Virus record (IMG/VR): IMGVR_UViG_3300003316_000129
Direction: 5' to 3' (one strand)
DNA length: 64,000 nt
Source of the DNA: an uncultured virus (IMG/VR IMGVR_UViG_3300003316_000129)
Taxonomy: Duplodnaviria > Heunggongvirae > Uroviricota > Caudoviricetes
The notes below the pieces were generated by a model. It was not told the origin of the DNA. It ran no database searches and saw only the letters and a list, made by a program, of their open reading frames with translations. Position 1 is the first letter of the stretch. Every line of letters starts with the position of its first letter. The position numbers and the translations under genes are program-made. Positions 8,813 to 61,547 of the stretch are shown here, piece by piece.

Positions 8813-9139
8813 ATGAATAAAGCAAAAAAAACAGAAGAAGTTGCACTTCCATTTGATTTACCTGAGTTTTCTTTAAAGTGGCAAGAATGGCTGCAATTCA
8901 GAAAAGAGCGCCGACTCCCCTCATACGTTCCTACGGGCCTAAAAAAGACTTTTACGAAACTAGTTAACGAGAGCCAAGGTGATCCTTGTGTAGCGATGCA
9001 AATAATAGACCAGGCTATTGCCAATAATTGGCAAGGTCTTCATCCTTTAAAACCAAATTATGGGAATACCAATTCGGGAATTGTTAAAAAGCCAATCCCA
9101 ACCGGAAATGTCACTAAAGGAGGTTTTGGCCAGTTATAA
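8813..9139 (+). CDS. Phage replication protein (replisome organiser C-terminal-like)
   Basis: W.EWL.FRKE.R....I.QAIANNWQGL motif, directly upstream of the loader ATPase. Confidence 0.65.
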   Translation: MNKAKKTEEVALPFDLPEFSLKWQEWLQFRKERRLPSYVPTGLKKTFTKLVNESQGDPCVAMQIIDQAIANNWQGLHPLKPNYGNTNSGIVKKPIPTGNVTKGGFGQL

Positions 9140-9899
9140 TCACATTGAGCTTACGGAAGATGAAGTTAATGAAGCGTTGATCGAGGCCAAAAGAAAAAAA
9201 GACGCCAGATTAAAAGAATTAGGAAGGAAGCTTAGGGCTGATGAGGCAAGGAAGCAATTATCCGGTGGATGGAGTTATGAACAGACCAGGGATTATATGC
9301 TTTATAGGGCTAACTCTTTGTTTGAAGGGAGGTTTGAATTAGATGAACATAATAGTCTCATTTTTGAACTTTTATGTCATTACTTTAGTGATAGTAAAGA
9401 GTTTGTTTCTATAGCTACTGGCATGGGGGTAAATAACCCGTCTTTAGATAAGAGTATTTTACTTGCAGGGAATTATGGCACTGGCAAGACATGGATGATG
9501 AGTCTATTTCGAAAAAACAATAAGCGAGTATACCATGTAGTGCACGCTAAGGATTTAGCAAAGGCGTATAAAAAAAATGGGGAAGAAGCCATAGAGCAGT
9601 ATATGTATAAAATAAAGAATCCTTTCAATGATCCAAATGTATTTTACCAAGAATATTCTGGGTTATGCGTTGAAGATATTGGTGCTGAAGACCCAAAGGG
9701 GAATTACGGAGATCGGCCATTGGTGGTAGGTGATATTATTGAGGGAAGGTATATTAATCAATGTTTAACCGGTTGGTTTCATGGGACTACAAACCTTACT
9801 TCGGAGCAATTGAAGTCGTATTATGGCGAGCGTGTGACAAGCAGATTGCGTGAAAGTGTGAATTTAATAGAGCTTGGTGGCCCTGATAGGAGGAAATAA
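9060..9899 (+). CDS. DnaC/IstB-like helicase-loader ATPase
   Basis: Walker A GNYGTGKT; Walker B LCVEDIGAE; TTNL and YGERVTSRLRE motifs. Confidence 0.85.
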   Translation: MGIPIRELLKSQSQPEMSLKEVLASYNHIELTEDEVNEALIEAKRKKDARLKELGRKLRADEARKQLSGGWSYEQTRDYMLYRANSLFEGRFELDEHNSLIFELLCHYFSDSKEFVSIATGMGVNNPSLDKSILLAGNYGTGKTWMMSLFRKNNKRVYHVVHAKDLAKAYKKNGEEAIEQYMYKIKNPFNDPNVFYQEYSGLCVEDIGAEDPKGNYGDRPLVVGDIIEGRYINQCLTGWFHGTTNLTSEQLKSYYGERVTSRLRESVNLIELGGPDRRK

Positions 9900-10766: not shown

Positions 10767-10861
10767 NNNNNNNNNNNNNNNNNNNNNNNNNNNNNNNNNN
10801 NNNNNNNNNNNNNNNNNNNNNNNNNNNNNNNNNNNNNNNNNNNNNNNNNNNNNNNNNNNNN
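10767..10861. other. Assembly gap (N run)
   Basis: Run of n. Confidence 1.
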
Positions 10862-11305: not shown

Positions 11306-11338
11306 AATAAAGCCTCCCATGTTAAAGGAGGCTTTATT
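11306..11338. terminator. Bidirectional terminator
   Basis: aataaagcctcc-catgttaaa-ggaggctttatt between convergent genes. Confidence 0.75.
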
Positions 11339-11360: not shown

Positions 11361-11645
11361 TTACGTAGCGAGATCAGTCACAATTTGAGCAATGGTTTTA
11401 TCAGTATAAAAAACTGATCCACCATATACTGTACTTGTGATGGCGGTGTAAATTAAAGCACCACCAGCCTGACGACCAGCCTGAATATCTTTCAATTCAG
11501 AAAATGAAATGGGCTGACAGGCAGAAGTACCAGTGCCAAAAAGCATAGGCATACCGTATGGGTATAAACTACGATTGATAACATTGTTACTGTTAATTTG
11601 GTAGATATTCGCACGAATTACCGTGTTTAAAAGAGTAGAAGCCAT
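11361..11645 (-). CDS. Small T/G/A-rich protein, possibly a virion (decoration) protein
   Basis: Likely start MASTLL; has its own TAAATTTG box (11679-11686, minus strand) and terminator. Confidence 0.65.
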   Translation of the reverse strand: MASTLLNTVIRANIYQINSNNVINRSLYPYGMPMLFGTGTSACQPISFSELKDIQAGRQAGGALIYTAITSTVYGGSVFYTDKTIAQIVTDLAT

Positions 11646-11678
11646 AAACCAAGGATTTAATTTGTTAGTTAATTGAAC

Positions 11679-11705
11679 CAAATTTATACATTTTTTTTAT
11701 ATTTG
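11679..11705. promoter_or_regulatory. Divergent Bacteroidota-type -7 promoter boxes
   Basis: TAAATTTG (minus strand, 11679-11686) and TATATTTG (plus strand, 11698-11705) match TAnnTTTG. Confidence 0.65.
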
Positions 11706-11709
11706 GATC

Positions 11710-11825
11710 ACTTACCATTTCGTTATGTATATATTATTAAAAATTTTAATCTCCGGCATAGATGCATCCTGCCTTAGTCATGGCGAGATGGTAAGTCTTC
11801 TATGACCGGAGGTTTTTGTTTTTTT
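11710..11825 (+). ncRNA. Structured RNA leader (A-B-A'-B') upstream of HNH gene
   Basis: 11710-11727 pairs fully with 11779-11796 (18 bp including 3 G-U); 11751-11762 pairs with 11799-11811; a U-tract follows. Confidence 0.7.
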
Positions 11826-12431
11826 ATGGCACTCTTAAATATAATAGGTAAAAAATTTAATCATCTAATTGTTATAGAAAGAACCGAATCTAAGTCCCAT
11901 GTTGACAGGGCTGCTTGGTATAAATGTATTTGTGATTGTGGTATTGAGATATTTGCAAAAGGAGTTGAAGTAAAAAGCGGCAGAAGAAAAAGCTGCGGAT
12001 GCCAAAACTGGGAGTCTAAATTAAAGCCATTTAGGGGTCATTATTTATATGAGGTTTGGCATTCTATGATTCAAAGATGTACTAATAAAAATTATCATGC
12101 TTACCCTCATTATGGAGGAAGAGGCATTTGTGTTTTCCCTGATTGGTTTAAGTATGAAAATTTTTATAACGATGTTATAGATATTTATAATAAACAATTT
12201 AAGGAGCGGTATCATTTTGATAGAATAGATAATGAATCTAATTACGCTCCCGGAAATGTCAGGTTTGTAAGTACAAAAGAAAGTGCTAGAAATAAACGAG
12301 GCGTAGTATTAACGATTGAAAAGGCTAACGAAATTAGAAACTCTAAATTGTCAATTAAGGCGCTCGCTAAAAAATACGGAGTGAAAGAGCGGGCTATTTA
12401 TAATATAAAAGCGAATAAAACATGGGTTTAA
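11826..12431 (+). CDS. HNH homing endonuclease (N-terminal CxC..SCGC domain, C-terminal HTH)
   Basis: CICDCG..SCGC; W.SMIQRC.N..Y..YGGRGI.V; DRIDN...Y.PGNVRF. Confidence 0.9.
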   Translation: MALLNIIGKKFNHLIVIERTESKSHVDRAAWYKCICDCGIEIFAKGVEVKSGRRKSCGCQNWESKLKPFRGHYLYEVWHSMIQRCTNKNYHAYPHYGGRGICVFPDWFKYENFYNDVIDIYNKQFKERYHFDRIDNESNYAPGNVRFVSTKESARNKRGVVLTIEKANEIRNSKLSIKALAKKYGVKERAIYNIKANKTWV

Positions 12432-13222
12432 TTACGGCAAAGCACAGCTTTAATTCTGGGGATATTCTGACGGTCTTACCGGGGCTTAAGTATTTAGCAG
12501 AAAAAAACAAAACACAAGTGAAGATATTTCAACTATTGGATTTGCCAGCAGATTATGGGCACAATAACCCGCATCCTGTTACTAAAAACGGGGTACATGT
12601 ATGCATGAATGAGGGTATGTATAAATCATTAAAGCCGCTATTGGAGTCACAAAATTATATACATAGCTTTGAAATCTGGAAAGGAGAAGCAGTTGATTTT
12701 AATTTTGATCTAACAAGGCATCATTCACAAATGCCACTCCCTGGTGGCAGGATACACTCATGGCCCACTCTTATTTTCCCGCAATTAGAATGCTCTTTAA
12801 ATGATCCCTGGATTGATGTGCCACCAGATTTTTCATATGAAAACAAGGTGTGTCTTAATTTTACAGAAAGATATCGGAATGAATATATATCATATTTCTT
12901 TCTTAAAGAATATCAAGATAGATGCTTTTTTGTCGGCACTATAAATGAATGGAAAATTTTTATTGAAAAATGGGGGTTACATAAGATACCTTACGTCCAT
13001 GTGAATGATTTTCTTGAACTGGCAAAGTTTATCAAAGGTTGTAAGTTTACAATTGGCTGCCAATCATTCGTATGGCATTTAGCAGATGCAATGCAAACCC
13101 CTCGTATATTAGAGATATGTACACTGTACCCAAACACGTTTCCTGTCGGGAGCAACGGGTATTCATTCATAACACAAGAGGCATTGGAGTTCAGGTTCCA
13201 CCAACTTTTAAACGAATTATAA
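12422..13222 (+). CDS. GT9-like glycosyltransferase
   Basis: SGDIL..LP at the N-terminus; LELAKFIKGCKFTIGCQS..WHLA.A..TP at the C-terminus. Confidence 0.7.
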   Translation: MGLITAKHSFNSGDILTVLPGLKYLAEKNKTQVKIFQLLDLPADYGHNNPHPVTKNGVHVCMNEGMYKSLKPLLESQNYIHSFEIWKGEAVDFNFDLTRHHSQMPLPGGRIHSWPTLIFPQLECSLNDPWIDVPPDFSYENKVCLNFTERYRNEYISYFFLKEYQDRCFFVGTINEWKIFIEKWGLHKIPYVHVNDFLELAKFIKGCKFTIGCQSFVWHLADAMQTPRILEICTLYPNTFPVGSNGYSFITQEALEFRFHQLLNEL

Positions 13223-13224
13223 TA

Positions 13225-13455
13225 ATGGATGTAAAAGACTTTGTATCCAATGGAAATTTTGTGACTTTTGATAGTTTTCGCGCAGGGATATTCTATTATT
13301 CAGTCGCACATAAAATGACGCTTGAGCGGTTTCAGTTTCAAGTTCCGCTTGATGATATTGGGAGCGCTACTTTATTTAACAGAGATAAGTCTATATTTTT
13401 TATGCGCTGGATAAGGAAATCTATACAGGATGGGACTTTCGTTAAAATTGATTAA
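13225..13455 (+). CDS. Small conserved-looking phage hypothetical protein
   Basis: MDVKDFV..F.VPLDDIGSATL..DKSIFFMRWIRK. Confidence 0.6.
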   Translation: MDVKDFVSNGNFVTFDSFRAGIFYYSVAHKMTLERFQFQVPLDDIGSATLFNRDKSIFFMRWIRKSIQDGTFVKID

Positions 13456-13457
13456 TT

Positions 13458-13940
13458 ATGAGAGATATAAAATTCAGAGCGAAGAGTATTCACCCTGATG
13501 GCGAATGGAAGTTCGGTAGCCTAAAGCGATATATTGATCATGGGAAGGTTTCTATAATGGAAGAAGTTGAAGGTGGCCATATGTGGCTTATTGATCCAGC
13601 TACAGTAGGTCAGCATACTGGTTTAAAAGATAAAAACGGCAAAGAAATATATGAAGGAGATGTGTATTTAGCAGATCGGAGTTATATGCCAAGCAGGGGG
13701 CACCTTAGAAAGGGTTATCCAGAAAGGATAAAAGTGATATGCGTTGTTGAATGGAGTGTTTATGATGCAGGCTGGCGAGATAGAGAAATTGGCCCAATAG
13801 AAGAGCATAAGGAATTTGATAAGCATACCCCCTACCATTACTATCATACATCATTGAGTGGTTCACAAGATGGGAATGCAGAATGGATGGAGGTAATAGG
13901 TAATATACACGATAATCCAGAATTAATAAAACAGAAATGA
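13458..13940 (+). CDS. YopX family protein
   Basis: MRDIKFRAK; TVGQHTGLKDKNGKEIYEGD; EVIGNIHDNPEL. Confidence 0.92.
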   Translation: MRDIKFRAKSIHPDGEWKFGSLKRYIDHGKVSIMEEVEGGHMWLIDPATVGQHTGLKDKNGKEIYEGDVYLADRSYMPSRGHLRKGYPERIKVICVVEWSVYDAGWRDREIGPIEEHKEFDKHTPYHYYHTSLSGSQDGNAEWMEVIGNIHDNPELIKQK

Positions 13941-13984
13941 ATGGCGCGAACATTTATTTGAAATAAAAAGCATATATTGCAAAT

Positions 13985-14094
13985 GCTTATCACTTCAACT
14001 TTATGAAATCATTTAATTCAAATTCCTGTCAACAGATACATTCCTGCCTAACGGTTGAGAGTGATAAGCTATCTGTTGGCAGGATTTTGTTTTT
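13985..14094 (+). ncRNA. Structured RNA leader (A-B-A'-B') upstream of HNH gene
   Basis: 13985-14000 pairs with 14053-14069; 14024-14038 pairs with 14070-14084 (15 bp, 1 G-U); a U-tract follows. Confidence 0.7.
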
Positions 14095-14724
14095 ATGCAA
14101 CATTGGAAAAACCTAAGCCTTGACTCACTAAAAGAAGAAATCGAAGGGATAATTTATGTAGAAAAATGGAAGCCTATACCTAATTATGAAGGCTGCTATG
14201 ACATAAGTAGTTTTGGTCGAATAAAAAGTAAAAAGAGGTTAGTTAAACATTATAGAGGTGGGGTTTTACAGAAATCAGAAAGAATATTAAAGCAAAATCT
14301 GGATACTGACGGATACCCGCAGGTTTTATTATGCAAAGAAGGCATATCTAAATCTGTTAAAATACACCAACTTGTAGCAAAGGTATTCATCAAAAACCCA
14401 GAAAACAAAACAACCGTCAATCATAAGTGGGGGATAAAAACGCATAATATGGTGCATCAATTAGAATGGTTTACGGTTGCAGAACAAACTAAACATTCCT
14501 ATGAAGTTCTGAAAAGAAAATTAAGCCCTAAAACATTCACCCCAGGTAAAGGGAACCCATTTTCAAAAAGGGTATCGCAATATGACCTGAATGATAATTA
14601 TATAGCTTCATTTAACGGAACTAGAGAGGCAGAGAGGATGACTGGATTTGATAGGCAAGGCATAGCCCGTTCTTGTAGAAGTGCAGGCAAACCATATAAA
14701 AACTATAAATGGAAATACGAATGA
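14095..14724 (+). CDS. NUMOD4-HNH-NUMOD1 homing endonuclease
   Basis: EKWKPIPNYEGCYDISSFGRIKS; HQLVA..FI.NP....VNH..G.K..N....LEW. Confidence 0.9.
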   Translation: MQHWKNLSLDSLKEEIEGIIYVEKWKPIPNYEGCYDISSFGRIKSKKRLVKHYRGGVLQKSERILKQNLDTDGYPQVLLCKEGISKSVKIHQLVAKVFIKNPENKTTVNHKWGIKTHNMVHQLEWFTVAEQTKHSYEVLKRKLSPKTFTPGKGNPFSKRVSQYDLNDNYIASFNGTREAERMTGFDRQGIARSCRSAGKPYKNYKWKYE

Positions 14725-16172
14725 AAAAAGAATTAAATAATGTCACACTTGTATGTATAGACTGCGTACAGTATGGAGAGGCGATTCAGGCGATTAAAAA
14801 AAGTCTCATTCAAATCAATCCTAAAAAGTCTCTTTTTTTTACTGATATAAAAGCGTATAGCCCAAAGTTCCCCTTTGAGATCATTAAGATTGATAAAATA
14901 TCAAGCAAAGAGGAATATAGCCATTTTGTTTTTAAAGAATTGTATAAATATATTGAAACGGATTATGTTTTAATTATTCATGCGGATGGATATGTGTTGG
15001 ATGGTAATGCTTGGGATGATAGATTTTACGAATCGGACTATATCGGCAGCCCATGGCTTTATATAGACGGCCGAAACGTTGGTAATGGCGTTTCTTTGCG
15101 ATCCAAAAAATTACTTGAAATATGCGCGAAAGATGATTTTATGGATATAACTCATCCAGAAGATGCGATGATATGTAGGTTATATCGCCCATATCTCGAA
15201 AAAAAATACAATATAAGGTTTGCTCCCGAAGAATTGGCTGATAAGTTTGGCTATGAACTTAGAGAACCTATTCAAAGCACTTTTTTATTTCACGGTAAAT
15301 TCCACCAACCATTTCAGCCTACGGTTGTAATAAAGCGCTCAGGTGCTTTAGGAGATTGTATAGCTGCTGAACCATTAATGCACTATTACCATGAACAAGG
15401 GTACAGGGTTGTGGTTGATATGCCAGTTCATCTTGCAATGGTATATGTGAACCACTATTTCAAAGTGTGGCATATAAGCCAAATCGATGTTGATCGAGTG
15501 AAGCCAATGGTTATTGATCTTGATGGTGTATACGAGGATAAGCCAGATCAACTTCATCTTAAAAGTTATTTTGAAAGAGCGAGTTTTATTCAGCACTTAA
15601 ATTACAAAAATCCAGCTATTGAGGTTTCATTAAGGAATCCGAAACTTCATCATCCGAATATTGAATACACAAAAATGTTTAAGAATTTGTGTGTAATTCA
15701 CGCTGATGAGCGCGATCAGCCATATCGAAATATATACGGAGTTAATTGGCGCGAAGTGGTTCAGTCTTTAATAAAGCGCGGGTATACAGTAATTCAAACA
15801 GGTCTTGCAAAACATGAGGATATTGAAGGCGCAATTCAAATGCATACTGCTACAAACAATTTCCTGCTTTACCTAATCGCCGGGGCGTCATTATTTGTAG
15901 GGATTGATTCTGGCCCGGCTGCGATGGCTGTAGCGTGTGATGTGCCGTCTGTTATTTTCTTCGGATCAGTTGAAAGCAAATATATCCATCCTGATCTAAG
16001 CAACGTTTGTGTGATCGAAAAAGAAAACCCATGCTCAACGCCAAAGTGCTGGCATAATGAAGTTGGCGGTACAACTGGCAGGCCGTGTGTTGTGAACGAA
16101 ACGATGCCCCCGTGCACACAATTCAACACCGAAGAAGTATTATATAAAATTGATAAATTCCTGAATAGATGA
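14721..16172 (+). CDS. Two-domain glycosyltransferase (DUF5672-like GT-A domain plus GT9 domain)
   Basis: VLIIHADG..DYIGSPW..VGNG.SLRSK..PED; GALGD; FVGIDSGP..MA.A..VP.V.FFG. Confidence 0.8.
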   Translation: MKKELNNVTLVCIDCVQYGEAIQAIKKSLIQINPKKSLFFTDIKAYSPKFPFEIIKIDKISSKEEYSHFVFKELYKYIETDYVLIIHADGYVLDGNAWDDRFYESDYIGSPWLYIDGRNVGNGVSLRSKKLLEICAKDDFMDITHPEDAMICRLYRPYLEKKYNIRFAPEELADKFGYELREPIQSTFLFHGKFHQPFQPTVVIKRSGALGDCIAAEPLMHYYHEQGYRVVVDMPVHLAMVYVNHYFKVWHISQIDVDRVKPMVIDLDGVYEDKPDQLHLKSYFERASFIQHLNYKNPAIEVSLRNPKLHHPNIEYTKMFKNLCVIHADERDQPYRNIYGVNWREVVQSLIKRGYTVIQTGLAKHEDIEGAIQMHTATNNFLLYLIAGASLFVGIDSGPAAMAVACDVPSVIFFGSVESKYIHPDLSNVCVIEKENPCSTPKCWHNEVGGTTGRPCVVNETMPPCTQFNTEEVLYKIDKFLNR

Positions 16173-16912
16173 CGGTTTTTGATTGTTTTTGTTATTGCGG
16201 TGAAAAAGAACTTCTTGAAATAAGGCTTAATGAGTTTTTAAATAGCAAGCATCCAGTAGTGCATGTTTTAATTGAGTCAAAATTTACATTTTCAGGTAAA
16301 GAAAAACCATTGTATTTTGACAAGAGCAAAGAATCATTTGCGGAATGGCCTATAATAAGTATCACCGTGAATGAATTTCCTGAAACTGATAATCCGTGGG
16401 AAAGAGAAAAATACCAAAGGAATATGATCCAAGGTGCTTTGAAATTTCTTCTAGCCAAAGATAACGACACGGTAATTATATCAGATGTGGACGAAATACC
16501 AAGTCATAAAGCTGTTGATATTTTTTGTGGGCTAAATGATACTGAATTTGCATCACTAATGATGAAGAAATATGGTTATTATCTTAACTATCAAGAAAAA
16601 GATGAATGGGATAGGGCCAGAATTTTTAGATACAAGTATCTGAAGGATAAAACGCCAGAAGAAATAAGAAACAGCGGTTACTCAATTGCAATGCATAATG
16701 CCGGCTGGCATTGGTCATATTTGCACCCAAGAATCAGAGAAAAATTAAATTCATTTTCGCATACAGAAATCAATACGCCACAGAACTTAGGTAAAGCCGA
16801 TGAGTTTATAAACTTCTGGAATGGCTCTGATATGAAGATAGTTGACATAGATGAAACATACCCAGAGTATCTACGAAATAATATTTCAAAATTCAAACAC
16901 CTTATAAAATGA
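16169..16912 (+). CDS. GT17-like (beta-1,4-GlcNAc transferase) glycosyltransferase
   Basis: FDCF....E..LLEIRL; TFSG..KPLYF; W.RE..QRN; ISDVDEIP; GWHWSY. Confidence 0.85.
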   Translation: MTVFDCFCYCGEKELLEIRLNEFLNSKHPVVHVLIESKFTFSGKEKPLYFDKSKESFAEWPIISITVNEFPETDNPWEREKYQRNMIQGALKFLLAKDNDTVIISDVDEIPSHKAVDIFCGLNDTEFASLMMKKYGYYLNYQEKDEWDRARIFRYKYLKDKTPEEIRNSGYSIAMHNAGWHWSYLHPRIREKLNSFSHTEINTPQNLGKADEFINFWNGSDMKIVDIDETYPEYLRNNISKFKHLIK

Positions 16913-17125: not shown

Positions 17126-17902
17126 ATGCAAATATTTGATTGTTTCCCGTTTTGGCGGGAGTTGGATGTATTAAAACTAAGATTGGAAATACTAAAGCCA
17201 TTAAATGCGATTCATGTTCTTGTAGAAGCACCAATATCCCATACCGGCGACCCCAAACCTCTTTACTTCAAAGAAAATGCTCAATTGTTTAGCGAATATA
17301 ATATTCGTCACATTGTCACTGATTTGCCAAATAAAGGGGATGCATGGGAAAATGAAAATAAACAAAGAGATGCGATTATTATGGGGTTGTACGATGCTAA
17401 TGACGAAGATTTAGTAATAGTTAGCGATCTTGATGAAATACCAAAACCGGAATCGATTCTTGAATTTATTCCAGATAAAATGGTTGTGGCTGCACTTAAA
17501 ATGAATCACTATACTTATTACTTGAATTGTCAACAATGTATTCAATGCTGGGAGATGGCCAGGTTGACTACATTTGAATACCTAAAAACAACCACTCCAA
17601 ACAGATTAAGGCAAGATGGGTTTAAGACAATTATGCTTAATGCCGGGTGGCATCTTTCTTGGATGGGAGGAATTGATAGGATAATGGATAAGTTTTTCTC
17701 ATATGCGCATACTGAAAGCTGCACATCGGCTAACACAGATAGAGACGCATTGATTGAGAAACTTAATACAGGTGAATCCCTATGGAGTAATGGGAATAAG
17801 AATGATCTATGGCCATTTGTTCCCATTGATGATTCTTTCCCGAAATACATTCGTGACAACGAGCAACAATTGATAGAGAAAGGTTTAATAAAACCGTTAT
17901 GA
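17126..17902 (+). CDS. Second GT17-like glycosyltransferase
   Basis: IFDCFPF..E..VL.LRL; KPLYF; W.NE..QRD; VSDLDEIP; GWHLSWMG. Confidence 0.85.
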   Translation: MQIFDCFPFWRELDVLKLRLEILKPLNAIHVLVEAPISHTGDPKPLYFKENAQLFSEYNIRHIVTDLPNKGDAWENENKQRDAIIMGLYDANDEDLVIVSDLDEIPKPESILEFIPDKMVVAALKMNHYTYYLNCQQCIQCWEMARLTTFEYLKTTTPNRLRQDGFKTIMLNAGWHLSWMGGIDRIMDKFFSYAHTESCTSANTDRDALIEKLNTGESLWSNGNKNDLWPFVPIDDSFPKYIRDNEQQLIEKGLIKPL

Positions 17903-18165
17903 CCAATGTTGAGGAATTAATTGGGAAAAAGTATGGTTATTTGACAATTCTATCCGATGCAGGCTTGGTGAACCTGAAGAATGGCTATAATAGAACAAAG
18001 GGGTATAGATATGTCAATGTCAGATGTGACTGCGGTATTGTAAAATCAATTATTCTTAATAATATTGTTGCCGGTCATACAATTAGTTGCGGATGTGTCA
18101 GGAAGAGAACTAACGGCAGGGTTAAGGTTAGAAAAAATAAAAAACAAAATTTATTTAAAAAGAAT
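17899..18165 (+). pseudogene. Truncated HNH endonuclease N-terminal domain, in frame with the methyltransferase
   Basis: LIGKKYGYLTI..CDCG..GHTISCGC with no nuclease core. Confidence 0.65.
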
Positions 18166-18822
18166 ATGCTTACATTAAATGAATATGCGTCTATGTATGG
18201 AACTGATAAAGGGCCTAACGGCCACAATTATACCCCATACTATGATATGTTTTTTAAATCAATGAGGCTGAAAATGCCAAACGTTCTTGAGATCGGAATA
18301 GACGAAGGCAATAGCCTGAAGATGTGGGCTAAATATTTTGAGGGTGGCCTGATACACGGGATTGATCTTAGGGGAGATTACGATTATTTAAAAGAATGGA
18401 AAAAAGAAAACAAGGCCTATATTAAAACGCATGTAGTGGATCAATCCAATAAGGCTGATCTTGTTTTATTCGGAGAAAAATTTTCCGATTATTTTTCTAT
18501 AATTATTTGCGACGGCAGTCATAACGCTGAAGATGATATTCTTACTTTTGAAACTTTATTTCCGTATCTAAAGAGTGGCGGTTATTTTGCGATTGAAGAC
18601 ACGCTTTGTTCTACTGATAAAAATAGATGGGGAAAAGTAGCTAATATATACGATCGGATCAAACAGATGATTGATGAAGTACACATGAATGGGAAAATGT
18701 CTGTGGATAGCCTATGTTCTAATAAAATAAAAGAAGCACCAAAATATAATTTGAATTATTTTGAAGCAAACATCGAGTGGGTATGGTGTAGTGCTGGATT
18801 AACAATTATTAAGAAAATATGA
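18166..18822 (+). CDS. Class I SAM-dependent (sugar) O-methyltransferase
   Basis: YGTDK...HNY.PYY; VLEIGI..G.SL.MW..YF; IICDGSH; LKSGG.F.IED. Confidence 0.85.
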   Translation: MLTLNEYASMYGTDKGPNGHNYTPYYDMFFKSMRLKMPNVLEIGIDEGNSLKMWAKYFEGGLIHGIDLRGDYDYLKEWKKENKAYIKTHVVDQSNKADLVLFGEKFSDYFSIIICDGSHNAEDDILTFETLFPYLKSGGYFAIEDTLCSTDKNRWGKVANIYDRIKQMIDEVHMNGKMSVDSLCSNKIKEAPKYNLNYFEANIEWVWCSAGLTIIKKI

Positions 18823-19648: not shown

Positions 19649-20400
19649 AAACACTTGGCGGCGTAATGTTTGTAATTAATGGTGTTAAGTATGACTATTG
19701 CTTTATCGAGTCGATTGAATGCCTTTGCGATCTTTGTGATCAAGTATCAGTTGTTGGGATAGAATCAGAAGATAATACCATTGAATTATTGAATGAGCTT
19801 TCTGAAAAGCATAATAATTTGTATGTTACAGTCGTCGGAAGAGAGGAATGGGAAAAACAAAAAGGACGCGAGAAGCTGGCTTATTTCCAGAATCTTGCTC
19901 TTTCTTTTTTGGATACTGATTATTATTTCCTGCTACAGGCTGATGAAATACTAACAGAAGAAAGCTTCGAATTTATAAGAAAGGCAATAAATGACTCAAG
20001 ACCAGAATCATTTCTGTGCGGTAGAATTAATTTATGGGGTGATTGTAACCATTATATAAATGTTCCAATAAGTAAACAACCATGCAATATAGTAGTTAAC
20101 AGGCTTGCAAAAATTGATAAAAAATCTTATGGGGATGGAGAGAGTATTGACGCAAAGGCATCATTGGAATTTGTAAATAATATTACAATTATTCATTATG
20201 GGTTTGTCAGAAAGCGAGCTATTATGAAAGATAAAGTCATACATTTACAGGAGGATGTGTTTGCTCTTGGGTTTCATGATCCAAAACTTGACGAATCTGA
20301 AGAATTTAATAGTAAACTTTGGTTTGATGGCGCTCAATTATCAAAAATCAACTTCAATCATCCAAAATACATAAAAAAATGGGTAAAAGATCGACCGTAG
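19645..20400 (+). CDS. GT2-like glycosyltransferase
   Basis: SEDNT.ELL; N.AL; FLLQADE; IIHYG. Confidence 0.75.
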   Translation: MKTLGGVMFVINGVKYDYCFIESIECLCDLCDQVSVVGIESEDNTIELLNELSEKHNNLYVTVVGREEWEKQKGREKLAYFQNLALSFLDTDYYFLLQADEILTEESFEFIRKAINDSRPESFLCGRINLWGDCNHYINVPISKQPCNIVVNRLAKIDKKSYGDGESIDAKASLEFVNNITIIHYGFVRKRAIMKDKVIHLQEDVFALGFHDPKLDESEEFNSKLWFDGAQLSKINFNHPKYIKKWVKDRP

Positions 20401-20951
20401 AAATATGGGAAGATATTAAAGGGTTTGAAGGTCATTACCAAGTAAGCACTTTAGGCAGGGTTAGATCATTAGATAGAGTGGTGAAAAGTGGTCAATTCGT
20501 TCGCGGAAAAATATTAAAAGCTGCCACAGATAAAGCCGGATATGTATTTATATATCTAAGAAAAGATTGTAAAAGTATATTTTTTAGGATTCATAGGCTT
20601 GTCGCATTGACATTTATAAAAAATCCGGCAAACAAATTAGAAGTTAATCACATAAACGGCATAAAAAAAGATAATAAAGTTGATAATTTAGAATGGTGTA
20701 CTACTTCAGAAAACAGGCTGCATTCGTTTAGAAAACTGAATAGAAAGCCATCAAGAGCATGGCTTGGTAAATTTGGCAAAGACAATCCTCGATCCATGAA
20801 AATTATACAGGAGACTAAACAGGGTGAAATGGTAGCCACATTCAACTCAATGACAGAAGCGAGTGCCAAGACAGGCTTTACAATGGCTACTATATCTAAA
20901 ATTATAAATAAAAAAGTAACCCCCAGGTATTTTAACTTCAAAAAGGCATAG
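20379..20951 (+). CDS. NUMOD4-HNH homing endonuclease
   Basis: EIWEDIKGFEGHYQVSTLGRVRS; IHRLVA..EVNHING.K.DN.V.NLEW. Confidence 0.92.
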   Translation: MGKRSTVEIWEDIKGFEGHYQVSTLGRVRSLDRVVKSGQFVRGKILKAATDKAGYVFIYLRKDCKSIFFRIHRLVALTFIKNPANKLEVNHINGIKKDNKVDNLEWCTTSENRLHSFRKLNRKPSRAWLGKFGKDNPRSMKIIQETKQGEMVATFNSMTEASAKTGFTMATISKIINKKVTPRYFNFKKA

Positions 20952-20956
20952 AATAT

Positions 20957-22561
20957 ATGAATAAAACAATAATCTTCGACTCAGAAGCAAGAGCAAAAGT
21001 TCAAAAAGGCGTACAAACAATAGCCGATGCGGTTGCTGTTACATTAGGAGCGGCTGGCAGAAATGTGCTTATAAGCCGTAATGAAGTAATTGATTACGGA
21101 GTAGGTTCATTGCCTGTTAAGGTTACAAAAGACGGTGTGACAGTAGCGCGTAATGTACAATTAAATGATCTGGTTGAAAACGTAGGCGCAATGATGATGA
21201 GGGAGGCGTCTGAAAAAACAATGAGTTCGGCAGGCGATGGAACTACAAGCACAATAATATTGGGTCGCGCAATGGTTGATGAAGGAATAAAGCTAATCAA
21301 TGAAGGGGTAAACCCAATGGAAATTAAAAGAGGCATAGATGCCGGTGTAGCATATGTTGTTGAGGAACTAAAGAATATAGCTATTCCGGTCAACGATGAT
21401 GTAGAGACTGTAAGAAAAATCGCTACTGTGTCCGCAAATAATGATCCATCTATTGGGAATCTTGTTGCTGAAGCATTTGAAAAAATAGGCAAAGATGGCA
21501 TCATAAATATTGAAGAGGCGAAAAGCACAAGCACCAGTGTTAAGATTATTGATGGATTTGAAATTAAAAGTGGATTCATTAGCCCTTATTTTATAACTGA
21601 TCGTGCAAAAAACACTTGTGAGCTTATTGATCCAAATATTCTTCTGTATGAAAAATCCATTGACAATCTAAAGAAGGTAGAGAAAGTTTTAAACGAAAGT
21701 ATAAAAACACAGAGGCCGCTGCTTATTATTTGCGAGGATTCAAGTGGGGATGCGCTTGCTACAATTATCATGAACCACGTTGAGAGAAGGGTGCCGCCAA
21801 TGTGTATTGTAAGATGCCCGTATTTTTTTGATAATAGAGTTGACGTAATGGAAGATATAGCTGCTGCAACAAGCGCTACATTTCTTACTGACTCGAAAGG
21901 AGTTGGCATTGACAGGGCGGACGCATCTCATTTAGGGCGTGCTAAAAAGGTGATTATATCAAAAGACTCAACTGTAATTATAGGTGGCCATAGGAATATA
22001 AAAACATATGATGAACTTGTGACTAGCTTGTCTAAAGGGAAAGAGAGCGCTGAAAGTGATGAAGAAAAAATCACCATTGAGCGAAGGATTGCTAGGTTGA
22101 AGGGCGGTGTTGCTGTTATTTATGTAGGCGGCCCAACTGAAACAGAAATGAAGGAACGTGTTGATCGTGTAGACGATGCTGTTAGGGCGGCAAAGTCTGC
22201 AAACGAAGAAGGATTTGTTGCTGGTGGCGGGACTGTGTTTTTGAGTATTACAGATAAGTTAGGCTCATATGCCTGGAATGATAATCCGCATGGCCTCAGA
22301 ATACTCGAAGCCGCGTTGCAAGCGCCAGTGAAACAAATGCTATATAATGCCGGAGAGCCAAATCCCGCCGATATAATTAATCAGATTAGGGCGGAAGGTA
22401 ATAGTGTTGGATATAATGCTAAAACCGGGGCAATTGAAAACTTGCTTGAAGCAGGTATAATTGATCCATGCAAGGTATTAAGATGTTCTCTTCAAAATGC
22501 AGCGAGTGCTGCCGGGATGATCCTTACGACTCAATGTTTAATTGTTGACACTTTAAATTAA
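20957..22561 (+). CDS. groEL: Phage-encoded group I chaperonin GroEL
   Basis: ADAV.VTLG..GRNV; VTKDGVTVA; AGDGTTS; ERRIARL.GGVAVI.VG; GIIDP.KV. Confidence 0.95.
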   Translation: MNKTIIFDSEARAKVQKGVQTIADAVAVTLGAAGRNVLISRNEVIDYGVGSLPVKVTKDGVTVARNVQLNDLVENVGAMMMREASEKTMSSAGDGTTSTIILGRAMVDEGIKLINEGVNPMEIKRGIDAGVAYVVEELKNIAIPVNDDVETVRKIATVSANNDPSIGNLVAEAFEKIGKDGIINIEEAKSTSTSVKIIDGFEIKSGFISPYFITDRAKNTCELIDPNILLYEKSIDNLKKVEKVLNESIKTQRPLLIICEDSSGDALATIIMNHVERRVPPMCIVRCPYFFDNRVDVMEDIAAATSATFLTDSKGVGIDRADASHLGRAKKVIISKDSTVIIGGHRNIKTYDELVTSLSKGKESAESDEEKITIERRIARLKGGVAVIYVGGPTETEMKERVDRVDDAVRAAKSANEEGFVAGGGTVFLSITDKLGSYAWNDNPHGLRILEAALQAPVKQMLYNAGEPNPADIINQIRAEGNSVGYNAKTGAIENLLEAGIIDPCKVLRCSLQNAASAAGMILTTQCLIVDTLN

Positions 22562-22566
22562 TTGGG

Positions 22567-22767
22567 GTGTTTGAAATTAAAATAAAAATCGGGGATATAG
22601 AGTTTAGTTATTCAGAGCCGATAATAACCACTGGTGCTTACATTAGGCTGTTAAGTTCAGATAAATATGTGGATGGTAAAACAAAAAGCGAACGCATTAT
22701 AGAAGTTATAAAAGAAATGGTTGATCAAATTATAAAACTGAACAATGAAAATAAAAGCAAAGAATAA
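22567..22767 (+). CDS. Hypothetical protein
   Basis: 66-aa ORF with GTG start. Confidence 0.45.
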   Translation: MFEIKIKIGDIEFSYSEPIITTGAYIRLLSSDKYVDGKTKSERIIEVIKEMVDQIIKLNNENKSKE

Positions 22768-23020
22768 TTTCATCTTAACTAAGAAGCATCCTTCAGAAGA
22801 AGAACGTGGGGGGTTAGCTATTCCTGATGTAGCAAAAAAGAAACCACAGACTGCTGATATTATCAGTGTTGGTAAAATGGTGGAAGATAGAACTATCCAA
22901 GAAGGGCAGGTGGCGTACTTTCATCAAACAGCAGGGTTCCCGTTGGAAATTGAAAGAGAAGAGTATTGGGTATTAAGGTCGCAGGATGTAATTGCATGTA
23001 CTGATGCAGATAAGAAATGA
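22745..23020 (+). CDS. groES: Co-chaperonin GroES
   Basis: EE.GGLAIPD.AKKKP....IISVG; Y.VLR..DVIA. Confidence 0.88.
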   Translation: MKIKAKNNFILTKKHPSEEERGGLAIPDVAKKKPQTADIISVGKMVEDRTIQEGQVAYFHQTAGFPLEIEREEYWVLRSQDVIACTDADKK

Positions 23021-26425: not shown

Positions 26426-28561
26426 ATGGTTGAAGAAATTCAAGGGATAAGTTGTCATTGGAGAGATTTAAGCCCGTCTTTTATTGATGAATATGGAGTT
26501 TTGGTAGAGGGTGAGGAAATATTATATTCCAATCTCCCAAAAGAAGAGCAATATTTTAGAAGAGAAGTACATCCGTTTTCTGATGACGAGTTATTGGCTA
26601 TTGCCGAAAGAGAATTAACGTATCAGCAATTTTCCGCAGTACAAAAACAATGGGTTGATAGGCAGAATAGGATATTTGAGCAAGGCGTTTATGCCATGAT
26701 AAACGGTGTGTTAAAATTCATCCCAGGGGCATATTGGTGTTATGTTAATTTTTGGACGCTGGAACATGGCGATAAGCCTGAGTACCGCGAGGACGATAGA
26801 ATATTCTTTATATTTCATGAATACCTTCGTCTTGAAACTGATTGCTTGGGTATTACTCGCGGTAAGGGGCGTAGGCAAGGAGCCACATCTATTGGCACTT
26901 TCTTCATGTGGTTTATTGCTGGAAGAAAAGAGCAATGTAATGTTGGGCTGACTTCCTATAATGACACTGTTGCCGGTGACGTTTTTCAAAAGATGTTTTT
27001 GTTTGGATTAAAATCAATGCTTCCATGTTTTCAGGAAGATACTGATAGTGACTCTGAAAAATACGTGTGGTTTAGAGAGTCTGCCGGAAGAAAGAAAAAG
27101 GGGACTCTTGCCATCAAAAGAAAAGGGTTAAATAGTTTTGCTGATTATCGCCCTAACGTTATCAACTCATATGATTCTGGCAGGCAGACATACAATATGC
27201 CAGATGAAGCCGGAAAGCGACAAAAACTAAATATCAATTCATACTGGTCAAAGTTATACAAAACGTTTCTCGTTGGTAGAAATAAGGTTGGATTTGGGTA
27301 TTTGCCAACAACCGTGAACAAACGAAACGAAGGCGGCGAAACATATAAGATATTCTGGAAAAACGCAAATCAGCACCGGATAAGCAAGAAAACAGGAGAG
27401 CGTGTTGGAATAAATACACCTAACAGGTGCGTTAGGTATTTTGTTCCGGCCACTCATTGCTATGCTGGTTGTATTGATATGTACGGGAATAGTGTTATTG
27501 ATGACCCAGAAGTTCCAGTAATGGGCAATGATGGCAAGCTTATTACCGAAGGGTCAAAGACAATTCTGCTTAGGGAAAGAGAGGCTATTGAAGAAAGTAT
27601 AAGATTAGGAATAGGCGATGTTGAGCAGTTAATGGAGCATAGAAGAGACTATCCATTGACTGAGTTTGATATGTTTGCATTCGAATCAGGGGCTTGTGAG
27701 TTTAATGAACAGAACTTGATTAAAAGAATAGATGAGCTGGATGAAGAGCCAGTTTTTTTGCGTAGAGGAAGACTTGTGTTGAATGAAAAAGTGATAAAAG
27801 GTCAATTCCCTGGGCAGACAGACAGAAGAGAGCGTAGTGTAGAATTTGTTGATGATGATAATGGCTCATGGCTTGTATATGAATTTCCAAACAAGCCAAA
27901 TGACTTTGATCAATTCAATGATAATATATACCCAAGAAACTATTTATCTTATACAGCAGGGGTGGATACATTCAGGATAGGATACGCAGAGGATGGCTCA
28001 AAGGGAACTATTTGTATTTTCAAAAAATCAAACGTTCTTAATGGTGTGGAAACCGGCTGTTATCCTGTAGCTATTTACACTGGCAGGCCGCGTTTAGTGC
28101 AGTTTTTATATGACGAGGTAATGAAGGTTTGCATGTGGTACGGGTGCAAGGTTAACATTGAAATATCTGCCGGTGACTATTACTATGGATATTTCCATGA
28201 AAAATTCTGCTCAGATATTTTGTATTGGACTCCAGCAAAAGACCCACATAATAAAAATCAGAAAATAAAACCGGGGACAGAGTCGGCTAGTCCTTTTGAA
28301 TTAGCAGCCCAGCTTGAAGCGGCTAAAATATTTTTTGATGGGACTAGTTCAGAAGCGTATAACGGGAATACGCATAGGGTAGTATTTAAAGAAATGCTAG
28401 AACAAGCTTTAGCGTATGACCATGCGCTTAGAACACCTTTTGACTTGCTTATAGCGCTCATGATGGCACTTTTGCCAGCCTTAAAGCCGCAACCCTTAGA
28501 TATTCCACCAGATAAGCCGAAGCAATTACTTCCGATTTATCAAATAAAAAATGCATCTTAA
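26426..28561 (+). CDS. terL: Terminase large subunit
   Basis: Walker A KGRRQGATS; Walker B PDEAGK; R.YP....D.F; RNase H-like GVDTF and FD..IA. Confidence 0.9.
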   Translation: MVEEIQGISCHWRDLSPSFIDEYGVLVEGEEILYSNLPKEEQYFRREVHPFSDDELLAIAERELTYQQFSAVQKQWVDRQNRIFEQGVYAMINGVLKFIPGAYWCYVNFWTLEHGDKPEYREDDRIFFIFHEYLRLETDCLGITRGKGRRQGATSIGTFFMWFIAGRKEQCNVGLTSYNDTVAGDVFQKMFLFGLKSMLPCFQEDTDSDSEKYVWFRESAGRKKKGTLAIKRKGLNSFADYRPNVINSYDSGRQTYNMPDEAGKRQKLNINSYWSKLYKTFLVGRNKVGFGYLPTTVNKRNEGGETYKIFWKNANQHRISKKTGERVGINTPNRCVRYFVPATHCYAGCIDMYGNSVIDDPEVPVMGNDGKLITEGSKTILLREREAIEESIRLGIGDVEQLMEHRRDYPLTEFDMFAFESGACEFNEQNLIKRIDELDEEPVFLRRGRLVLNEKVIKGQFPGQTDRRERSVEFVDDDNGSWLVYEFPNKPNDFDQFNDNIYPRNYLSYTAGVDTFRIGYAEDGSKGTICIFKKSNVLNGVETGCYPVAIYTGRPRLVQFLYDEVMKVCMWYGCKVNIEISAGDYYYGYFHEKFCSDILYWTPAKDPHNKNQKIKPGTESASPFELAAQLEAAKIFFDGTSSEAYNGNTHRVVFKEMLEQALAYDHALRTPFDLLIALMMALLPALKPQPLDIPPDKPKQLLPIYQIKNAS

Positions 28562-29172
28562 ACCCACGATCTATTAGATCGAATATTATTTATAGTTGTT
28601 TTGCCGACACCATATTTCGCCATTAAGGAAATTGTTTTATCTTTTGAATTGCGTATTTCATTAGCTTTTTTTGTAGTTAATTTCGTATTGCTATTAGCTC
28701 TTACGTTTTCTTTAGCAGTTACGAACTGGCAGTAATCAGGGCAATAAAGTAATGCCGGGATGTTTAATTTTTTCGGAATAATATCTTTATCTAATTGAAG
28801 ATGTTTTTGCCACCCATTTTCTAAAGCCCATTTAATAAAAACTTCAGGATTCTTCCATTCTTCGCAAACCATTACCCCGCGCCCACCGTAATTTTTATAT
28901 CTAGTGCTTTTGGGATAATAGCATCGCTCCATCATGTAACGCCATGTTTGATAAGCAGGGTGTTTTCGTAATCCATGTGTTGTATTTCTTTCCAATAGTA
29001 CATCGCTAAGGGCGCAACCGCACGAAATGGTATGCAATCTTCTTAAATTATTCCCAAAAACTACACATTCATTCCCACAGATACACTTGCATATCCATTT
29101 CCCGCTTTGATCAGATTCTTTTATTACAGATAATCGGCCATATCTTTTCCCAGTCAAATCAATCTTTCTCAT
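28558..29172 (-). CDS. HNH-type homing endonuclease, antisense to the virion operon
   Basis: DLTGKRYGRL; CKCICG..SCGC; M.ERC...Y.NYGGRG; LDKDI....YCP..C; C-terminal HTH similar to the 11826 gene. Confidence 0.88.
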   Translation of the reverse strand: MRKIDLTGKRYGRLSVIKESDQSGKWICKCICGNECVVFGNNLRRLHTISCGCALSDVLLERNTTHGLRKHPAYQTWRYMMERCYYPKSTRYKNYGGRGVMVCEEWKNPEVFIKWALENGWQKHLQLDKDIIPKKLNIPALLYCPDYCQFVTAKENVRANSNTKLTTKKANEIRNSKDKTISLMAKYGVGKTTINNIRSNRSWV

Positions 29173-32097: not shown

Positions 32098-32117
32098 TAT
32101 CTCTAATGAATTATGAT

Positions 32118-32195
32118 ATTGAGCATCAAAATTCGTTATTAATAACTTCAAAAGGGTTAGGCGGTAGCTCAATTGCCGCCTTCCTTTTGAATAAT
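32118..32195 (+). ncRNA. Hairpin with a loop complementary to an upstream segment, upstream of HNH gene
   Basis: Stem 32147-32166 with 32174-32191; 7-nt loop gctcaat is the exact complement of attgagc at 32118-32124. Confidence 0.6.
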
Positions 32196-32720
32196 ATGGG
32201 ACAAGAAGTTTGGAAACAAGTAAAAGATTATGAAGGATATTATGAAGTGTCAAATCTGGGAAGAGTCAAGAGTTGTGCTAAGAGGTGGTCAGTAGGACGA
32301 AAAGAGGAAACCATTCTGAAGCCAGCTCATAGGCCGGGTGAATATGATTTTGTTATTTTTTGTGTTGATAAAATAAAAAAGCAGATGACCGTTCATAGAT
32401 TGGTCGCGCTTCATTTTTGTGATAATCCAAATAATTACCCTGTAGTTAATCATTTAGATTCGGATATTTACAATAATAAGTGGGACAATCTTGAATGGAC
32501 GACAAGTAGTGGCAATTCTATTCACGGGTATGAGCATGGGAATAGAATTAAGCCCAAAGGTCAATTACATCCAAAATGTAAATTAAGCAATGAGGTAGTG
32601 ATTGAAATTAGAAAAAGACGATCTAATGGAGAAACTGTCAGTTCATTATCAAAAGAGTTTTCTATTTCTATTGCTCAGGTTTCAAGAATTGTAAATGGCC
32701 GCAGGTGGTCGCACATTTAA
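32196..32720 (+). CDS. NUMOD4-HNH homing endonuclease with C-terminal HTH
   Basis: EVWKQVKDYEGYYEVSNLGRVKS; VHRLVA; VVNHLD....NN...NLEW. Confidence 0.92.
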   Translation: MGQEVWKQVKDYEGYYEVSNLGRVKSCAKRWSVGRKEETILKPAHRPGEYDFVIFCVDKIKKQMTVHRLVALHFCDNPNNYPVVNHLDSDIYNNKWDNLEWTTSSGNSIHGYEHGNRIKPKGQLHPKCKLSNEVVIEIRKRRSNGETVSSLSKEFSISIAQVSRIVNGRRWSHI

Positions 32721-40869: not shown

Positions 40870-40877
40870 TACTTTTG
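40870..40877 (+). promoter_or_regulatory. -7 promoter box for the HNH gene
   Basis: TACTTTTG, 11 nt before the ATG at 40889. Confidence 0.55.
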
Positions 40878-40888
40878 TTAAAAAAAGT

Positions 40889-61289: not shown

Positions 61290-61547
61290 AAATATATTTT
61301 TTGATTTGGTTAATCAATGTCAATAGGGATAACAACAACATAGGGCCATGTTGTACCTGATATGTACCCACATTTTTTAATAAACGCTAACCATTTTTCG
61401 CTATATTCCGAAAGCCCTAAATCTTCAGGATAGATGTAAATTGCTTTTGTCATGACAATTCATTTTATAAATTAACGTTTGTATTTAATGGATAGGATAA
61501 GGTACGGCCTTACTAGGTCATAATTTCAGGCCGTCCATTGTAATTAT

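Follow-up and report, generated by a model that had tools for sequence, protein, structure and literature searches.

Covarying leader RNAs with interleaved helices precede HNH nuclease genes in related uncultured phages and may attenuate them in cis

Homing endonuclease genes have to be expressed enough to spread and not enough to harm their carrier, and how this is controlled is known mainly from T4. The uncultured virus record IMGVR_UViG_3300003316_000129 (IMG/VR; Caudoviricetes) raises this question at two places of the stretch of 64,000 nucleotides analysed here (the window), where two different HNH-type nuclease genes follow leaders of the same design. An earlier note on this DNA had described, in each leader, four segments in the order A, B, A′, B′, of which A pairs with A′ and B with B′, and had proposed a portable RNA element that attenuates the nucleases. 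What is this element, and how might it act on the genes behind it? The leaders are members of a real, uncatalogued, covarying RNA family that is tied to nuclease cassettes, of which five copies in three related uncultured Bacteroidota phages were seen.

The topology was recovered in both leaders of the window to within one base of where it had been placed, on the sequence as well as on duplex folding: the limits given for A and A′ stood, and those given for B and B′ were off by one base (Table 1). In leader 1, A and A′ are paired at 18 of 18 positions (three G-U pairs, -24.5 kcal/mol), and B and B′ leave one A bulged and form 12 pairs, to which a basal U-G pair may be added (-19.0 kcal/mol); the A:A′ duplex of leader 2 has one bulged G. 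The two helices have no bases in common, and since their strands are interleaved they either form a pseudoknot or exclude each other.

Relatives of the window were collected by way of its DnaC-like protein (9060-9899), which has 132 relatives at E-values up to 1e-10, many of them 60-72% identical and on contigs of 60-100 kb; 39 of the 132 were aligned, and 79 metagenome, 32 IMG/VR and 20 genome loci with flanks of up to 10 kb were obtained. A design-seeking script run over the related loci brought out three further leaders (L049 15248-15345, L049 17376-17476 and L050 13264-13371). Covariance models were built from leader 1 and its L049 twin (R1 and R2; A-stem and B-stem models) and from all five copies (R3). 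The models from leader 1 and its twin recovered all five and nothing else in 431,791 bases (E-values up to 0.28 with the B-stem and up to 8.1e-5 with the A-stem), and R3 found only the five in 689,990 bases (E-values up to 8e-15), the next match being a plain long hairpin in L076 (E-value 0.22).

Both helices covary among the five copies. In the 5 × 5 cross matrices of arms, the cognate A:A′ and B:B′ duplexes were the most stable entries in every row, and for helix A the diagonal held -18 to -25 kcal/mol, versus -3.5 to -14.8 kcal/mol between different sequence types. In the model-fitted alignment of helix A, 98.8% of 86 cells were paired and 12 of 18 pairs were changed on both sides, a level that none of 500 shuffles reached; when the register was shifted by 1-3 columns, only 32-55% of the cells remained paired. 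For helix B the corresponding values were 92.2% of 77 cells and 9 of 13 pairs (again 0/500 shuffles). A caveat on these counts is that fitting both alignments to the structure biases them towards it, and that the helix B alignment contains one spurious reverse-strand row. The arm-by-arm tables agree with them, having double changes at 12 of 15 pair positions in helix A and at 8 of 10 in helix B. Between the two close copies, whose homology is secure (78% identity over 114 nt), one helix-A pair and at least one helix-B pair are exchanged on both sides. Thus the compensatory changes to which the earlier note had looked do occur in both helices. The 18 G-U pairs and the U-tracts are compatible with the + strand only.

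Table 1. Positions of the elements of the two leaders and of the nuclease genes behind them (window coordinates)
Feature	Position	Strand	Remarks
Leader 1, -7 promoter box (TATATTTG)	11698..11705	+	Fits the Bacteroidota consensus TAnnTTTG; 4 nt between end of box and A; predicted promoter
Leader 1, arm A	11710..11727	+	Predicted to be nt 1-18 of the transcript; ends with the leader ATG; covaries across the family
Leader 1, open frame, 26 codons	11725..11805	+	Open from ATG to B′; TGA within B′
Leader 1, loop L1	11728..11749	+	A/U-rich; A-run ahead of B
Leader 1, B (5′ arm of terminator 1)	11750..11762	+	Duplex folding and covariation
Leader 1, loop L2 (UGCAUCCUGCCUUAGU)	11763..11778	+	Only the first bases recur in the family
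Leader 1, A′ (partner of A)	11779..11796	+	Inside terminator loop; pairing and covariation
Leader 1, B′ (3′ arm of terminator 1)	11799..11812	+	One bulged A; folding and covariation
Leader 1, U-tract of terminator 1	11813..11825	+	Directly before the nuclease ATG at 11826; no space for another promoter
HNH-family gene 1, 201 aa, phrog_374 type	11826..12431	+	phrog_374 at 6.1e-48; stop overlaps start of next gene at 12422
Leader 2, -7-like box (TATATTGC)	13973..13980	+	Fits the TAnnTTGY variant; 4 nt between end of box and A; predicted promoter
Leader 2, arm A	13985..13999	+	15 pairs with A′, -18.2 kcal/mol
Leader 2, open frame, 37 codons	14003..14116	+	Crosses the terminator; ends 19-21 nt beyond the nuclease ATG
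Leader 2, B (5′ arm of terminator 2)	14024..14038	+	15 pairs with B′, -23.0 kcal/mol
Leader 2, loop L2 (CAUUCCUGCCUAACG)	14039..14053	+	Duplex folding
Leader 2, A′	14054..14069	+	Adjoins B′ directly
Leader 2, B′ (3′ arm of terminator 2)	14070..14084	+	15 pairs with B, one G-U
Leader 2, U-tract of terminator 2	14085..14094	+	Followed by the nuclease ATG at 14095
HNH homing endonuclease gene 2, 209 aa, NUMOD4 / I-HmuI type	14095..14724	+	Overlaps start of next gene at 14709

That the family had not been described before, as the earlier note had supposed, agrees with the Rfam search of the whole 64,000-base window, which gave no match at the gathering score; at E-values up to 10, window 11500-14300 gave three chance matches to other families, all outside the leaders. 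A full-text search of the literature (supplements aside) returned no description of this leader. The searches farther afield were likewise empty. R2 gave no copy when run over 855,446 further bases from more remote loci (best E-value 0.21), five whole IMG/VR records held nothing beyond the known copy, and one genome with 151 genomes of its Bacteroidota family gave no copy at E-values up to 0.1, an empty result that carries little weight there. In IMG/VR, a strict sequence pattern (A, loop, A′) had no match, not even to the window itself, and a loose one found 22 stretches, none with the terminator or the fold. No leader was found by the design scanners in 22 IMG/VR loci obtained through relatives of the two nucleases, nor by inspection of 12 upstream regions of those nuclease relatives (one of them truncated by the contig end).

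The design scan of 1,501,217 bases gave 16 matches, five of which are these leaders; in a subset of 400,446 bases it gave 8 real matches versus 3 and 3 in two shuffles. Weak matches at L069 13274-13375, L069 14417-14516, window 61389-61490, L059 and L066 were also looked into and dropped. Among them, L069 14417-14516 is a long terminator-like hairpin between two paralogous non-HNH genes, the apical loop of which is complementary to 13-14 nt just upstream. In spite of this loop-to-upstream pairing its layout differs, and its downstream gene is not HNH; the likeness may be accidental, or the element may be a less strict version of the design.

All five leaders share one geometry. Their -7-type boxes (TATATTTG twice, TATATTGC, TATATTCG and TAGCTTTA) end exactly 4 nt before A in 5/5 copies. 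In Flavobacterium, the TAnnTTTG box spans -12 to -5 in the data drawn on here (PMC6847099, PMC9723704), and the part of PMC9723704 used describes the TAnnTTGY variant at the same position. With a box at -12 to -5 that lies 4 nt before A, the predicted RNA start would be the first base of A, that is, 11710 in leader 1. TAnnTTTG occurs 25 times on the + strand of the window versus 32 expected; the box alone is weak evidence, and the argument is the fixed 4-nt spacing. The elements measure 15-18 nt (A), 19-29 nt (L1), 12-16 nt (B), 12-16 nt (L2), 16-18 nt (A′), 0-3 nt (linker between A′ and B′) and 13-16 nt (B′), and L1 is A/U-rich throughout the family with a terminal A-run ahead of B. From the end of B′ to the ATG of the HNH gene there are 10-13 nt in 5/5, spanned by a U-rich tail. 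This leaves no space for another promoter before the ATG, so that only polymerases which get beyond the hairpin and its U-tract would transcribe the nuclease. The features of an intrinsic terminator (A-run, GC-rich stem of 10-16 pairs at -17.4 to -23.6 kcal/mol, U-tract of 9-13 nt) are present in 5/5; its loop of 28-36 nt is atypical for such a terminator, and termination is a prediction.

Leaders 1 and 2 fold better than all of 200 dinucleotide shuffles (z -3.44 and -4.50), and when A′ or B′ was shuffled 1000 times the observed energy was reached only for B′ of the L049b copy. In the nascent RNA from A to the end of A′, the A:A′ helix is the minimum-energy fold in 5/5 (-18.8 to -27.0 kcal/mol), and blocking of A leaves -6.1 to -12.4 kcal/mol. 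Once the leader is complete, the terminator hairpin has the lowest energy of the nested folds in 5/5 (-25.6 to -34.4 kcal/mol versus -20.0 to -27.1 kcal/mol for the A:A′ fold). By our estimate, the short linker between A′ and B′ and the long loops would allow both helices to stack into a single nicked rod, the nick being where the RNA has its 5′ end. In every fold computed, the nuclease start is unpaired. An alternative pairing of L2 with A′, in which L2 mimics A, appears in nested folds and was rejected, as it beats shuffled L2 in 1/5 only and as its cross matrix shows no diagonal.

Conservation within the leaders is lowest in the loops. The sequence CAT(T)CCTGCC, which had been read in both loops of the window, is present as an exact pattern in leader 2 only; it misses leader 1 because leader 1 has one T fewer, and it is no motif of the family, in which only a short UGCAYYC-like loop start recurs. 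The two small open reading frames noted before, of 26 and 37 amino acids, do exist, and the idea that they share a reading S-C-L had to be given up, as the five copies have neither the peptide nor the frame in common and a frameshift separates even the two closest ones. What does recur is the position and the openness of the frame. The leader ATG lies at the A/L1 border in 5/5, at +16 to +19 from the predicted start, and its frame is open to the start of B′ in 4/5, which shuffles achieve in 16-26% per leader (P(≥4/5) = 0.006); the other two frames close earlier in 10/10 (in leader 1, after 4 and 16 codons). The leader peptides are unrelated, and the conserved property seems to be an open frame and not a peptide. 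In leader 1, the stop of the leader frame (window 11802-11805, ATGA) overlaps a further ATG at 11802, which shares the frame of the nuclease; a start there would lengthen the protein by 8 residues and might couple both frames, but the N-termini of the homologs fit a nuclease start at 11826 better than one at 11802.

The genes behind the leaders match PHROG HNH endonuclease families in 5/5, three falling into the phrog_374/3377 type and two into the phrog_59/NUMOD4 type, and no leader was found before any non-HNH gene in about 1.5 Mb of related loci. The statement that the two nucleases of the window belong to different families held: the gene 2 protein matches NUMOD4 (2.7e-15), phrog_59 (2.8e-35) and the I-HmuI chain 1u3e_M (2.2e-9), while the gene 1 protein (phrog_374) has no Pfam family and no solved relative by sequence. 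The model of the gene 1 protein comprises a small N-terminal beta domain, a middle part weakly like the HNH enzyme PacI (VIA-align; Z 6.0, root-mean-square deviation 6.3, 98 aligned) and a C-terminal helix-turn-helix, and Foldseek gave no matches for this fold at E-values up to 0.001. Among six homologs of the phrog_374/3377 type, an invariant His is absent, and a D-R/K-I/D stretch stands at the expected site of the HNH histidine. The nuclease fold of this protein type is putative and is taken from its PHROG naming.

Fourteen HNH genes were counted in the window and L045-L123, five with the leader and nine without. Most of the latter start within a few bases of the preceding gene, and one is preceded by a promoter box with no leader, at 12 nt from its ATG. 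Only two of the six HNH genes of the window carry the leader. Besides these six, the window holds an HNH-like N-terminal piece fused to a methyltransferase, a high density for 64 kb; the other HNH-type loci are 20379-20951, 28558-29172 (- strand), 32106-32720, 40889-41518 and 17899-18822. Within 40870-40891, the gene at 40889 has a perfect TAnnTTTG box (TACTTTTG) ending 11 nt before its ATG, which implies a near-zero 5′ untranslated region and a cassette design unlike the leader type.

In two relatives, leader and nuclease are missing together. At the site of leader 1, the flanking genes are kept in L053 (59% and 52% identical) and L056 with about 40-55 nt between them, and neither leader nor nuclease is there. 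At the same site in L049, there is a leader 78% identical to leader 1 (114 nt) before a nuclease that is only 29% identical to that of leader 1 and closer to another nuclease of the window, and this leader is the most similar stretch of DNA between the window and the L049 contig (of five blastn segments). The second leader type and its NUMOD4 nuclease (45% identical) are placed ahead of other genes in L049 than in the window. Since leader types head divergent nucleases or lie at differing sites, the leader behaves as a part of a mobile cassette that can be combined with different nucleases, and the proposal of a module portable between HNH families is borne out by all five copies preceding an HNH gene and by one leader type heading nucleases 29% identical. 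The left edge of the cassette can be placed no better than roughly 11680-11710. In the window, both nuclease cassettes interrupt a run of glycosyltransferase-like genes (GT9, DUF5672, GT17; 12422-13222, 14709-16172, 16169-16912 and 17126-17902), which are contiguous in the relative L053.

The nearest documented biology would, by analogy, be the restraint of homing endonuclease genes in T-even phages, for which the sections drawn on here describe hairpins over the start sites of I-TevI, segB and Aeh1 mobE (PMC2790892, PMC2988022) and a T4 mobE terminator present only in phages carrying mobE (PMC2790892). Like the T4 mobE terminator in that account, the present leaders combine an intrinsic terminator with a free-standing HNH gene, occur only where the nuclease is present, as the joint absence from the relatives indicates, and would hold transcripts down, the common theme being a restraint of selfish nucleases at several levels. 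The mobE terminator as described there is, unlike ours, a plain 9-bp hairpin with a 4-nt loop within the coding region of a gene without its own promoter; here the terminator lies before the ATG, its loop of 28-36 nt pairs with the 5′ end of the transcript, and a promoter box and a leader frame belong to it.

In c4 of P1 and P7 (with icd-ant) and in CI of P4, a strand of a hairpin loop pairs with a site over the start of an upstream frame, the translation of which may sustain transcription, and premature termination results. The earlier note had been reminded of these RNAs, and the working logic does hold: a loop strand pairs with its own leader beside a terminator, an upstream complementary copy (a1/b1-like, 15-18 bp) being present in 5/5. 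Membership of the C4 antisense RNA family, which we take to be RF01695, was rejected, as there is no covariance-model match and no second target at the nuclease start; the best A′ site in the U-tract and the first 90 nt of the nuclease, where a C4-type target at the regulated gene (a2/b2) was looked for, was no better than for shuffled A′ in 5/5. In contrast to c4, there is one long pairing of 15-18 nt instead of two short boxes, the target is the 5′ end, the terminator is intrinsic and not Rho-dependent, and the action is probably in cis only. Nor did we find evidence that the leader is an RNA partner of the nuclease, as had been considered; unrelated nuclease families share it, and an origin as HEARO or IscB omega RNA was rejected on the lack of an Rfam match and on the proteins, which measure 153-260 aa, carry NUMOD4/NUMOD1 or fall into no Pfam family, and gave no RuvC among the families matched at E-values up to 0.01.

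In the trp and pyrBI attenuators, a short 5′ frame and a terminator precede the gene, and the position of the ribosome decides whether the terminator forms. The present leaders likewise have a short frame near the 5′ end that reaches the terminator; they differ in lacking evident regulatory codons as well as a conserved peptide, and in that the helices, sharing no bases, are interleaved as in a pseudoknot. In the 'tug-of-war' antitermination of a recent preprint (Bushhouse, Fu and Lucks 2026; 10.64898/2026.06.17.733018), a ligand-stabilised structure lies upstream of the whole hairpin in the constructs considered here. A stable structure very near a terminator arm without shared bases would be common to both (A:A′ ends 0-3 nt before B′); in our leaders, however, it is within the loop beside the 3′ arm, a placement outside the tests seen in that preprint, and no ligand is known. 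The control would be of a known kind in a modified form, and the mechanism that follows is plausible.

From sequence and folding, we infer promoter use, start site, termination, leader-frame translation and the direction of the effect as follows. In a mobile nuclease cassette made up of promoter, leader and HNH gene, each element would be the promoter-proximal leader and would attenuate transcription in cis; we put the probability of a cis-acting attenuator at roughly 0.8. Transcription would begin at the first base of A and meet, about 105 nt later, the intrinsic terminator made up of the A-run, the B/B′ stem and the U-tract, the end of which is 10-13 nt ahead of the nuclease ATG, so that the nuclease would be expressed by read-through only. 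The first 15-18 nt (A) would pair with A′ in the terminator loop beside B′, which would bury the 5′ end and the leader ATG, and A:A′ and B/B′ together would be a pseudoknot closing the RNA. A ribosome that reaches the leader ATG before A′ is made could translate B, the loop and A′ into B′, whereby the terminator would be melted and the polymerase would enter the nuclease gene; if no ribosome came in time, A:A′ would form, the start codon would be locked and the transcript would end at the U-tract. The net outcome would be a low expression of the nuclease that depends on translation. To this gating by translation of the leader frame, as distinct from attenuation as such, we give somewhat less than an even chance.

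Several observations weigh against the gating. The test of the leader frame was chosen post hoc with n = 5, in a small family of which two copies are 78% identical over 114 nt, and the frame of the L049a leader stops after 14 codons, inside L2. The stop of the leader frame lies from -49 to +25 of the nuclease ATG across the copies, and with positions so variable there can be no uniform translational coupling. Both the leader ATG and the nuclease ATG are immediately preceded by U-rich sequence, unlike the A at -3 that is the positive determinant of translation in Flavobacterium in the part of PMC6847099 used. Ribosome loading would have to occur within roughly one second (our estimate) before A′ appears, and may fail.

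A leader of this kind might also do without the ribosome. Were A:A′ stacked coaxially on B:B′, the pseudoknot would be a constant brace of the terminator, most transcripts would end as an RNA of about 105 nt, and a small fixed fraction would read through whether or not the leader was translated. The geometry, as estimated, permits this, because a linker of 0-3 nt and loops of 12-16 nt (L2) and 19-29 nt (L1) are long enough to span crossed helices, and so does the energy, the sum of both helices exceeding the nested minimum even after a pseudoknot penalty taken as about 14 kcal/mol; T4 nuclease genes, in the accounts already cited (PMC2790892, PMC2988022), are restrained by terminators too. We nevertheless regard it as unlikely: an ATG at +16 to +19 in 5/5 with a frame open to B′ in 4/5 would be left unexplained, a plain small-loop terminator such as that at 11306-11338 would suffice, and the phage genes that overlap the nuclease stops would starve unless unseen promoters exist. 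These genes would be spared if read-through were the default, which is what follows if A:A′ is an antiterminator without shared bases that forms first and hinders B:B′ sterically or by strain, a ribosome or factor on A then freeing the terminator and turning the cassette off. This reading, which reverses the sign of the proposed control, has in its favour that A:A′ is the nascent minimum-energy fold in 5/5 and that B begins at +20 to +33 from the leader ATG, just beyond the footprint of an initiating ribosome. In the preprint mentioned above, stable structures at a very short spacer suppress termination without sequence overlap, but the structure there sits upstream of the 5′ arm and not within the loop (10.64898/2026.06.17.733018). 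The loops here, moreover, are long enough for both helices to coexist, a frame kept open to B′ would be without reason, and a nuclease that is on by default goes against what is known of the T4 nucleases from the part of PMC2988022 considered; we judge it about as unlikely as the constant brace.

Two further readings dispense with attenuation. The leader, with its own promoter-like box and terminator, its compact stable fold and a topology that recalls c4 and CI, could be a stand-alone gene for a small RNA acting in trans (of the c4/CI immunity type or another antisense RNA) that merely adjoins the nuclease genes. This is improbable in view of the distance from B′ to the ATG, which is held at 10-13 nt in 5/5 and leaves a nuclease promoter no space; a second A-like site near the nuclease starts was better than shuffles in 0/5, the best matches of the L2 loops in trans were 10-12 nt, about the chance level in 128 kb by our own arithmetic, and the RNA matches nothing in Rfam and has its least conserved parts in the loops. 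With a weak terminator, on the other hand, the pseudoknot could be a purely post-transcriptional lock on the full-length mRNA that hides the 5′ end from decay enzymes and crowds the nuclease start codon, much as type I toxin mRNAs, hok among them, fold back between their 5′ and 3′ ends. The base predicted to stand at the 5′ terminus is indeed paired and abuts B′, the nuclease ATG follows the stable fold by 10-13 nt, and structure near the start tunes translation in Bacteroidota in the portion of PMC6847099 consulted. Against such a lock stand the terminator features (A-run, GC-rich stem, U-tract of 9-13 nt) conserved in 5/5 and the nuclease start unpaired in any fold, and it seems to us, if anything, slightly less credible than the RNA acting in trans.

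As to the phage, the window belongs to an uncultured phage contig of about 66 kb and contains genes for a portal, the large terminase, structural proteins, an endolysin, a sigma-factor-like protein and GroEL/GroES-like proteins. The terminase shares only 24% identity with its counterparts in Flavobacterium and Cellulophaga phages, and none of the 87 records matched reached 60% identity; against 50,697 phage records the window gave a single match of 225 nt, a NUMOD4 gene of an Enterococcus phage, and otherwise no near relative. A Shine-Dalgarno-like purine run is absent before the genes in the regions of the window that were read, and contigs related to the window were binned with Chitinophagaceae and Sphingobacteriales genomes. 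On the terminase relatives, the lack of Shine-Dalgarno-like runs and this binning, the host was taken to be a member of Bacteroidota. The GroEL-like (phrog_5725, 3.6e-140), GroES-like and sigma-factor-like proteins are encoded at 20957-22561, 22745-23020 and 60123-60653 (- strand); the last of them suggests phage-specific promoters, which a search for host-type boxes would miss. No tRNA or tmRNA was found in the window. Masked N runs at 10767-10861 and 40169-40228 leave the leaders untouched, and three related IMG/VR phage records (G001-G003, behind L124-L126) are classed with inverted terminal repeats.

The leaders thus make up a compact RNA module with covarying helices, which travels with unrelated nuclease genes among phages of Bacteroidota, hosts without Shine-Dalgarno sequences in which gene control is poorly understood; its five copies are natural compensatory mutants. 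If the translation-gated pseudoknot is true, it would be an attenuator design in which the competing helices share no nucleotides, and a small portable part, of about 130 bp including the promoter, for low expression in Bacteroidota. A bolder idea, which we consider doubtful, is that the five leaders are a local family of a wider, undescribed class of self-clamping terminator leaders, in which the transcript start pairs with the loop of a promoter-proximal terminator, and by which phages of Bacteroidota and others would, as a standard and portable means, control the expression of mobile nuclease cassettes and of certain other early genes, reading the translational state of the infected cell via the leader frame. 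Such a class, if it exists, would amount to a new attenuator type in which no base belongs to both of the competing helices.

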